DNA of 64,000 nt from NCBI GenBank assembly GCA_963809485.1, contig CAWEJX010000012.1, positions 78,185 to 142,184 on the forward strand, written 5' to 3'. The position numbers and the translations under genes were made by a program. Shown here piece after piece: positions 18,450-20,952 of this stretch. This stretch comes from an uncultured Acidobacteriota bacterium (lineage in GTDB: Bacteria; Acidobacteriota; UBA6911). The notes under the pieces were generated by a model, which saw only the letters and a program-made list of their open reading frames with translations, had not been told where the DNA came from and ran no database searches. Position 1 is the first letter of the stretch. The number at the start of each line of letters is the position of its first letter.

Positions 18450-20952
18450 ATGGCGATTGAGTCTGGCAGCAAGTATGCCGAAGAAGTTGGATCATGGCAG
18501 GAAATTCTTATACCTGTCCGTTCCGCGCGGGTTGAAAAGGCCAGGGAAAGAGTGCGCAAAGAAGCCGAAATCTGCCTGGAACGCATTCGAGCCGAACTCA
18601 AGGCCTATAACCAGTATAAAGACCAGCCTTCCATCATTCAGCGAGCCCGCTTCCTTGAGACTTTCCTGAGGGAGAAAAGTGTGCTTATCCAGGAGGATGA
18701 ACTCATTATAGGTACCGTGGGAAGTAAGCCTCGCTCCGCTTTTATAACAACGGCGAATATCGCCTCTATCGAAGAAGAGCTGGATGATCCGGTAAAGGAC
18801 TTCTCAATACGGTCCTATGACAGGATTTTAGTTCATCCTGAGGAGAGAAAAGAACTGAGAGAAGAGATTATTCCGGCCGTTAAAGGCAGTGCCATCTCTC
18901 TTTTCGAGTATAATTTTAAAAATGTCGACCGGGATATTCTCGAACATGCCGCTCCCGGAGTCTCATCCTGTCCGCATATACCTATTATCGGTGACGTATC
19001 GATGGCAAGAGAAGGCGGCCACATGTTCCTCAACTTTGAAAAGGCCCTTTGTAAAGGGCTTAGAGGAATCAAGGAAGAGGTCAGGGAGAAGTTGGCGGAA
19101 CTTGACCAGCCATATCGCGGATTTGACCGAAAACAGAGACGAGAATTTTACGAATCCGTGCTCATCACCCTGAATGCCGCTACGGAATATTTCCAGAAAT
19201 ATGCCGGACGCGCGCGTGAGATGGCAGCAAAAGAAACAGATCCGAAACGAAGGACGGAACTGGAACATATTGCCGAGACATGCGACCGGGTGCCGGAAAA
19301 TCCCGCGCGGGACTGGTGGGAAGCTCTACAGTCCATCTGGTTCCTGTTCACTCTGAGTTGGATGGAACACGCCACTTTTGCAGTACATTTTCTCGGCCGA
19401 ATCGACCAGATTTTGTATCCCTTCTACAAGAAAACCGTAGAAGATGAGAAGAAAATGACCCGGGAAGAAGCTCTGGAGCTTCTGGAATGCTTCCTGGTGA
19501 AATTCAACGAACCAGCCTGGGCACTCAACTACGAGTGGTCGCAATGGGCAACCGGCCAGGGACTTTCCCAGACAATGGTGATCGGCGGACAGACCAGAGA
19601 GGGCAAAGATGCCTGCAACGAGGTTACCATGCTTGTACTGGAAGCTATGGAACAATTGCGTCTGAATCAGCCGGAATTCGCCATGAGGATATGGGAAGGG
19701 ACACCCGATAAATATCTTAAAAAGGCGACCGAGCTTATCCGCCTCGGGCTCGGCTATCCGAAATTCATCGGTGACCGGAAAGGAATTCAGATGGCAGCCA
19801 AGGCCTATCCGGACCTGACAATCGAAGACTGGCGCCAGTTCGCTGTTGCCGGATGTTCGGAGATAGGTCTGCCTTATATCACTATGGATAACGGTTATGA
19901 AGCAATCGCACTGGCCTCCAAGTGGATAGAGCTGGTCTTGAGTAACGGTAAATGCGCGGTATGCGGCAAGCAGATCGGACTGGAAACCGGCGATCCCAGG
20001 AAATTTGAATCTATGGAACAGGTGAAAGAGGCCTACCGCAAACAGGTATTCTACTGGGGCGAGTATATGGCAAAGGCCGAGAAGATTTTCAAGGAAAACC
20101 AGAGCGAATGGTATCCTGCTCCATTCTGCTCGGCCTTTACCGAAGGACCCCTTGACAGAGGGCGAGATATTACCAGGGGCGGCGCCTGGTACACCGTGTA
20201 CGGTTTCCTGCTGGCCAGCATCGCCGACGCAGCGGATTCTCTGGGAGTAATAGACAAGCTTATCTACCGTGATAAAAAGGTTACCTGGGACCAGCTGATT
20301 GAAGCGGTGAATGCCAACTGGGAAGGTTATGAAAACATAAGGCAGCTCTGCGTCAACGGTGTCCCAAAATACGGGAATGACGACGATTACGCCGACGGCT
20401 GGGCAATCTGGGTAGCCGATGTCTGGGCCGACCTTATAGACTGGCTCAATACCAGAAAAGACCTTATGCCGAGGTGGGGAGGCAGATATCTGGCAGGTGG
20501 CCTGGTGGCAATAGCCAGTACCCAGTTCGGAGAATCGATCGGCGCTACACCAAACGGGCGTAAACATCCCATGCCGGTGGCTGATACCTGCTCTCCTGTA
20601 CAGGGTGTCGACCGGAACGGTCCCAGCGCCGTGGTCAAGTCATTCAGTAAATTGCCTACTCACCGGTGGGCGCTCGGCGGTCTGATAAACATCCGGTTAA
20701 ATCCGAATCTGTTTACAACCGATGCTGACCTTGAGAGATTTGCGGCTTTTATTCAGAGCATGTGAAGAGTTAGGTCTGTACCATGTTCAGTTCAATATAA
20801 TTTCTGCGGAACTGCTGCGTAATGCAATGAAAGAACCGGAAAAATACCGGGACCTGCTGGTCCGGGTAGCCAGCTATGTCGCCTACTTTGTTGAGTTGAG
20901 TCCGAACCAGCAGATGGACATCATCAACAGAACCGAGCAACAGAGCTGGTAA
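18450..20952 (+). CDS. Glycyl-radical-enzyme family protein (PFL2 / dehydratase-eliminase type). A +1 frame break lies at about 20760. The radical-Gly position reads Ser.
   Basis: The N-terminal 771 aa are PFL2-like, with a Cys-loop AVAGCSEIG (C-x-E). The C-terminal radical domain lies in ORF 20722..20952: ...[46 protein letters not shown]. Removing base 20760 joins ...AAFIQS to CEELGLY.... Confidence 0.8.

Follow-up and report, generated by a model that had tools for sequence, protein, structure and literature searches.

Aminoacyl radical enzymes (AAREs) have an alanine, a serine or a threonine instead of the radical glycine of glycyl radical enzymes (GREs) (Fu et al., JACS 2024, PMC11528403). 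The seryl radical enzyme (SRE) characterised in that work, DaSRE from Dethiosulfatibacter aminovorans DSM 17477, gave together with its own activase a four-line electron paramagnetic resonance (EPR) signal, which was assigned to a serine C-alpha radical, and of its variants S801A and S801T formed no radical and S801G the glycyl doublet (PMC11528403). Table S2 of the same study lists 21 SREs, MBN2062047 included; the SREs are reported as monophyletic, with the threonyl radical enzymes (TREs) as their sister group, and their serine codon is AGC or AGT, one step from a glycine codon (Fu et al., JACS 2024, PMC11528403). Here we describe a gene of this kind on a stretch of 64,000 nucleotides, referred to as the window, from contig CAWEJX010000012.1 of an uncultured Acidobacteriota bacterium (assembly GCA_963809485.1). 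The gene lies at positions 18450 to 20953 on the forward strand and encodes a GRE-family protein with serine at the radical position. Judged from its sequence, it very probably encodes a seryl radical enzyme, an AARE that branches inside the PFL2/eliminase part of the GRE superfamily, and its split in the deposited sequence is probably an insertion error of the assembly, in which case the gene itself would be an intact open reading frame (ORF) of 833 codons. The features of the gene and its activase are as follows.

18450 to 20753, plus strand: first 768 codons of the putative SRE gene, with the PFL-like barrel and the start of the radical domain, in frame A (PF02901, E 1.9e-158)
19854 to 19862, plus strand: Cys loop G-C-S-E with the catalytic Cys469 (19854 to 19856) and Glu471 (19860 to 19862)
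20754 to 20755, plus strand: one extra base (CAGA versus CGA in the same-genus orthologue from genome G001, with which it was compared), causing a +1 shift
20755 to 20953, plus strand: last 65 codons and stop of the gene, with the radical domain containing RVASYVAYF, in the +1 frame (PF01228, E 2.9e-14)
20872 to 20874, plus strand: AGC codon of Ser808, the predicted radical-bearing residue
20986 to 21915, plus strand: radical S-adenosylmethionine (SAM) activase (SRE-AE), with CX3CX2C as C-P-L-R-C-I-W-C and two auxiliary 4Fe-4S (ferredoxin-type Cys) motifs (TIGR02494, E 3.2e-98; PF04055; Fer4 domains)

The radical site reads R-V-A-S-Y, as opposed to R-V-x-G-[YFW] in glycyl radical enzymes. An initial annotation, made from the DNA letters, had pointed out this motif with its AGC codon at 20872-20874, and the reading is confirmed by the translation, by the match to the Gly_radical profile and by an alignment with CutC, which contains no gaps and places Ser808 opposite the radical glycine of RVAGY. 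The assignment to the GRE family holds as well, since the protein matches PF02901, PF01228 and TIGR01774, the last of which is covered at profile positions 3-722 by the barrel and at 718-785 by the radical domain. It had been considered that a better alignment might bring another glycine to the radical position. However, the C-terminal 65 residues contain a single glycine, in ELGLY, about 30 residues upstream of Ser808, so no alternative glycine can fill this position. The C-terminal domain as first quoted carries the correct motif, but the gene is not one ORF here and the frameshift at 20754-20755 was overlooked: the frame-A ORF as deposited extends over 18450..20765 (771 amino acids, with a TGA stop at 20763-20765), and the radical domain continues in the +1 frame to the stop at 20951-20953, as seen in the translation of window positions 20602-20953.

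Two further observations of the initial annotation, an eliminase-like C-x-E loop and an apparently intact activase directly after the gene, were found again as the G-C-S-E loop with Cys469 and Glu471 and as the gene at 20986-21915 with its CPLRCIWC motif. In an alignment of 19 diverse members of the clade to which the protein belongs Cys469 is invariant, and the loop of the clade is G-C-[S/T]-E. The canonical GRE definition for the PFL2/eliminase group demands glycine in RVxG[FWY], whereas the window protein and its whole clade carry serine; the sequence traits of SREs and AAREs are present, namely barrel and radical domain, serine for glycine, the catalytic cysteine, an adjacent activase, an AGC/AGT codon and the placement in the clade. 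The genome contains eight GRE-type loci, and serine occupies the radical site only in this one, the other seven carrying glycine.

The serine is conserved wherever relatives of the protein were found. The same-genus orthologue from genome G001, which represents another species, is an intact protein of 833 amino acids with 93% identity, the same RVASYVAYF motif and the same activase. A search of 5.8 billion proteins yielded, as its best 120 hits, clusters at 90% identity which share 54-100% identity with the query, sum to about 1,200 member sequences and include the window's own truncated product of 771 amino acids; all 119 full-length entries among them have serine at the radical position, in most cases as RVAS[YF]. 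Among the representatives of a library clustered at 50% identity, only the top two (59% and 48% identity) have serine, and at identities of 39% or below mostly glycine and a few threonine and alanine types are found. At the nucleotide level, the 42 serine-type motifs in 52 related loci use AGC (26) or AGT (16) and never TCN. Because the codons vary synonymously while the residue stays fixed, the serine is under selection. These comparisons establish the serine as genuine and conserved, a mark neither of a dead nor of a mis-sequenced enzyme. Within the same clade, a glycine immediately precedes the serine in RAGSY (P0038 and P0053) and RVGSF (L068), and the [FWY] part of the fingerprint is broken in P0055, P0074, P0087, L061 and L067, which read RVASS or RVAST.

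This conservation bears on the explanations offered at first for the unusual residue. That a substitution error in sequencing or assembly turned GGC into AGC is conceivable in so far as the two differ by one transition and the assembly does contain errors, but the errors seen are insertions and not substitutions, and the same residue recurs, with both codons, in assemblies produced independently by many studies and covering many phyla. The orthologue comparison that had been suggested as a check for GGC returned serine in the same-genus orthologue and in the other relatives, which already refutes such an error, and we regard its probability as negligible. A recent inactivation as the reason for the residue is likewise ruled out, since the serine characterises an entire clade, reaching to identities of about 48%, and the dN/dS of the gene is about 0.15.

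A third explanation is a GRE-fold protein without radical chemistry, in which the serine would have a structural or regulatory role. It agrees with the view held before 2024 that glycine is indispensable, and in some members of the clade (L031 and several loci of the RVASFT type) an activase is missing from the surrounding 6-8 kb. The premise that glycine is invariant in active GREs has been outdated since 2024, however, by the C-alpha radical measured on the serine of one SRE and lost in its S801A and S801T variants (PMC11528403). In addition, Cys469 and the C-x-E loop are conserved, and a dedicated activase adjoins the gene here and in most loci: when the proteins neighbouring the gene in the window were compared by tblastn with 57 related loci, an activase homologue was detected in 37. 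A non-radical role is therefore very improbable. Serine in place of the radical glycine would have contradicted a textbook rule before 2024 and now fits a published class, and genes of this type should not be annotated as inactive.

A maximum likelihood tree of 95 sequences was constructed, from which DaSRE was left out, its sequence being available only in a form damaged by optical character recognition (OCR). All 28 serine-type sequences, together with two nested alanine-type sequences, form one clade with 100% support on a long stem of 0.62, and the window protein is nested in it beside G001, P0009 and P0027. The last of these is MBN2062047 of the published SRE list, which is 79% identical to the G001 orthologue and thus connects the clade of the window protein with the described class. 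The threonine-type enzymes are sister to the serine clade with 98% support, in agreement with the published AARE topology, in which TREs are sister to SREs (Fu et al., PMC11528403). The two alanine-type sequences come from L075:917-7228 (metagenome-assembled genome (MAG) of a Desulfitobacteriaceae member) and L077:5938-12068 (Pseudomonadota MAG), each of which contains a serine-type gene (RVASY), an alanine paralogue (RVAAYSAYF, codon GCC) and one activase; both paralogues nest within the serine clade of the tree. In the published description the alanine enzymes are a separate clade, and two genes per activase are given only for the threonine enzymes (Fu et al., PMC11528403).

Among the described systems, DaSRE resembles the window protein in the PFL2-type GRE fold, the serine for the radical glycine (RVAS-Y), the catalytic cysteine and the adjacent dedicated radical-SAM activase. 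It differs in sequence (about 42% identity, a rough value owing to the OCR damage) and in host phylum and habitat, and it has been characterised by EPR, while the window protein is known from sequence and its published copy is frameshifted. MBN2062047, from the Deltaproteobacteria MAG Zod_Metabat.1158, shares the RVASYVAYF motif, the length and the adjacent activase, but its neighbours are an ABC transporter, AFOR and PrpD in place of the DHDPS-like and UGSC genes of the window. The TREs, such as TRE1 and TRE2 of Flavonifractor plautii, form the sister clade and follow the same principle of a C-alpha radical on a residue other than glycine; they have threonine instead of serine, TRE representatives share at most 35% identity with the window protein, usually two TRE genes occur per activase, and most of them are found in gut Clostridia. 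The best-scoring solved structures are those of CutC (E 1.5e-131), IslA (1e-117), glycerol dehydratase (1e-111) and HypD (7e-107), which have the C-x-E Cys loop and the overall architecture in common with the window protein. Unlike it, CutC and the other GRE 1,2-eliminases carry the radical glycine (RVAGY-S), a G-C-V-E loop and a serine two residues past the radical site. The scores of the window protein against the NCBIfam equivalog models are all far under the cut-offs.

A glutamate two residues after the cysteine is a mark of GRE 1,2-eliminases. By analogy with these enzymes and with DaSRE, the activase would cleave SAM, and the resulting 5'-deoxyadenosyl radical would take the C-alpha hydrogen from Ser808, a residue of the C-terminal finger loop, and leave a stable radical on the seryl C-alpha. 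In turnover this radical would move from Ser808 to Cys469, the thiyl radical of which would abstract a hydrogen from the substrate, and Glu471 of the G-C-S-E loop would serve as the base for a 1,2-elimination. The sequence features, the conservation and the clade membership were observed on the window protein itself; the seryl radical has been demonstrated for DaSRE only and would extend to the window protein by homology, and the radical transfer, the elimination chemistry and the substrate are predicted. According to Fu et al., the side chain of the L-residue sits where the pro-S hydrogen of glycine would be (PMC11528403), so that the activase must take the other hydrogen. Two changes specific to the clade accompany the serine: the Cys loop reads G-C-[S/T]-E instead of G-C-[V/I/L]-E, and cysteine, valine or threonine stands two residues past the radical site instead of serine. 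To judge from the recurrent neighbours discussed below, a hydroxylated organic acid or the coenzyme A (CoA) ester of such an acid is the probable substrate.

The second part of the interpretation concerns the split of the gene at 20754-20755, where the window reads TTATTCAGAGCATG and the G001 orthologue TTATTC-GAGCATG. For an estimate of such defects, 45 ORFs of G001 with orthologues of at least 75% identity in the genome of the window (G000, a long-contig MAG with 21 contigs and 6.0 Mb), corresponding to about 21,800 residues, were compared. In G000, six of these 45 are disrupted, and the seven events responsible are all +1 shifts, on contigs C5, C6 and C12. The disrupted genes include, on contigs other than that of the window, a PLP-dependent decarboxylase and the ribosomal protein S2 (rpsB), for which the insertion at C5:48424, outside the window, was confirmed base by base. 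The rate seems to be about one insertion error per 9-10 kb of coding sequence. Because the essential rpsB is broken in the same way, the shifts are best understood as technical insertion errors, and the comparison of the sequences indicates that the split of the SRE gene is probably such an assembly error. The assembly has single-base insertion errors that break genes.

Instead of an error, the shift could be a true one, in which case this organism's copy of an SRE-family gene would be a very recent pseudogene in a decaying gene island. The extra base is, after all, present in the deposited sequence, other genes of the island are also split, namely an SMP-30/gluconolactonase-like (SGL) gene (at 26370 and 26469) and a CoA-transferase gene (at 634), and two further GRE loci of the genome are fragmented. 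This is countered by the same +1 defect in rpsB and in the PLP-dependent decarboxylase on other contigs, and by the common direction of all seven events, which looks technical. Moreover, the 65 codons past the shift show no decay: relative to G001, dN/dS is 0.177 in them and 0.145 in the preceding 768 codons, and they keep all clade-consensus residues. We consider a real pseudogene unlikely.

The split could also be real and functional, with a barrel protein of 771 amino acids and a free-standing radical domain of about 70 amino acids translated from an in-frame TTG, comparable to E. coli GrcA acting with damaged PFL. In the +1 frame, TTG codons do occur just upstream, and the C-terminal piece taken by itself obtains scores with GrcA models, but these stay well below the GrcA/YfiD cut-offs, with 61 versus 145 bits for NF008341 and 48 versus 170 bits for TIGR04365. 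All other family members found are single polypeptides of about 830 amino acids, the split point has no precedent, and the +1 shifts across the genome explain the split more simply. Two separate polypeptides are very improbable. Two other ways of reading through the interruption were rejected. Selenocysteine read-through of the TGA at 20763-20765 does not agree with frame A, which shows no homology beyond this codon, and a programmed +1 frameshift is unlikely given that unrelated genes including rpsB show the same defect.

An intact seryl radical enzyme gene interrupted by an assembly insertion remains the preferred reading, against which several points have to be held. The SRE gene is broken in the deposited sequence, which weighs against its split being an artefact, and rpoB and rpoC are intact, so that the insertion errors are sparse and not everywhere. 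DaSRE, the only characterised SRE, is only about 42% identical, a rough value obtained from OCR-damaged, codon-optimised DNA in the supplement. A review from 2026 states that no AARE has a known function or substrate, and nothing newer on AARE function was found in the literature searched. Finally, the gene neighbourhoods differ between loci. The only intact member in the 90% cluster of the window protein, P0133, is about 92% identical and belongs to a different strain or species, so that it is no same-strain replicate for judging the frameshift.

Similar defects were noted in other genes. The SGL gene at window positions 25866-26995 is divided into two ORFs by its two extra bases, while the G001 orthologue is a single ORF of 370 amino acids, and the CoA-transferase at 494-1645 is shortened by its extra base. 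The two other fragmented GRE genes, both of the glycine type, are located outside the window at C12:63391-65758 and C4:228044-230442 of G000; one is broken by a +1 shift (its G001 orthologue is intact with 824 amino acids) and the other is in four pieces.

Most related loci belong to Dehalococcoidia MAGs from soil, fen and sediment, and a single genome often carries two to four of them. In the class of the host, the gene is present in only 2 of 137 genomes, and the nearest relatives outside the genus belong to Dehalococcoidales, with 82-88% identity. The region of the window from 5 to 30 kb deviates from the host in its tetranucleotide composition (r 0.858, where 25-kb pieces of the host average 0.971 and do not fall below 0.911) and in its GC content (51.3% versus 55.6%), and its tetranucleotide likeness to Dehalococcoidales loci is r 0.90. 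A mis-binned contig was considered and rejected, as C12 as a whole fits the genome (tetranucleotide r 0.989) and only the island deviates. A lateral acquisition of the island across phyla is therefore the simplest reading and probable. The gene is a further environmental member of an already published class and is probably unbroken in the organism itself. The SRE clade in soils, peat and sediments comprises no fewer than 119 clusters at 90% identity and is far larger than the 21 sequences of 2024.

The following features surround the gene and its activase.

13701 to 14579, minus strand: DUF6282 gene (PF19799, E 4e-61)
16278 to 16291, strandless: perfect palindrome of 14 bp, GTACGTATACGTAC, upstream of the aldolase-SRE gene string at a distance of about 540 bp
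16828 to 17874, plus strand: DHDPS/NAL-family (class I aldolase-like) gene upstream of the SRE gene, one of three paralogues in the window (PF00701, E 9e-11)
22172 to 24034, plus strand: protein of about 600 amino acids whose N-terminal domain is of the UGSC family (PF24696, E 1.4e-16) and which recurs beside SRE genes

In total, the window holds three DHDPS-like genes, three UGSC-domain genes and one DUF6282 gene. Homologues of these neighbours recur in the 57 related loci: DUF6282 in 18, a family-III CoA-transferase in 17, the DHDPS-like aldolase in 15, where it stands next to the SRE gene, and the UGSC-domain protein of about 600 amino acids in 12, L030 being a locus in which it is directly annotated. 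The DUF6282 gene directly follows the SRE activase in L030, L096 and L097. Further neighbours in annotated loci are AFOR, MmgE/PrpD, MaoC-type hydratases, URO-D, a carboxylesterase and MarR, the MarR genes adjoining the SRE gene in L030 and L096. Within the window there are three copies of the palindrome GTACGTATACGTAC (at 6774, 16278 and 29715), where 0.02 would be expected, each copy at a promoter region of the island, and it is a probable shared operator.

This neighbourhood suggests the catabolism of a hydroxylated organic acid via aldehyde or CoA-ester intermediates. As a tentative proposal, which we regard as possible without favouring it, the SRE subclade centred on Dehalococcoidia could provide the radical 1,2-eliminase for a conserved module of anaerobic catabolism under a MarR-type switch, and this module would have moved as an island into an Acidobacteriota genus. 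DHDPS-like aldolases, DUF6282, UGSC-domain proteins, family-III CoA-transferases, MaoC/PrpD hydratases and AFOR may be parts of this module. The recurrent neighbourhood could guide the search for a substrate, and if the proposal is true, it would be a route to the first substrate of any aminoacyl radical enzyme.

Two variations in the arrangement of the loci were observed. An activase is absent within 6-8 kb in L031, L065, L070, L071, L079 and L088, which belong to the RVASFT[V/A]YF subclade, and present in most other members. In G001 (L022:283-1383) an extra DHDPS-like paralogue lies between the aldolase and SRE genes, at the place of the non-coding spacer of about 575 bp at window positions 17875-18450.

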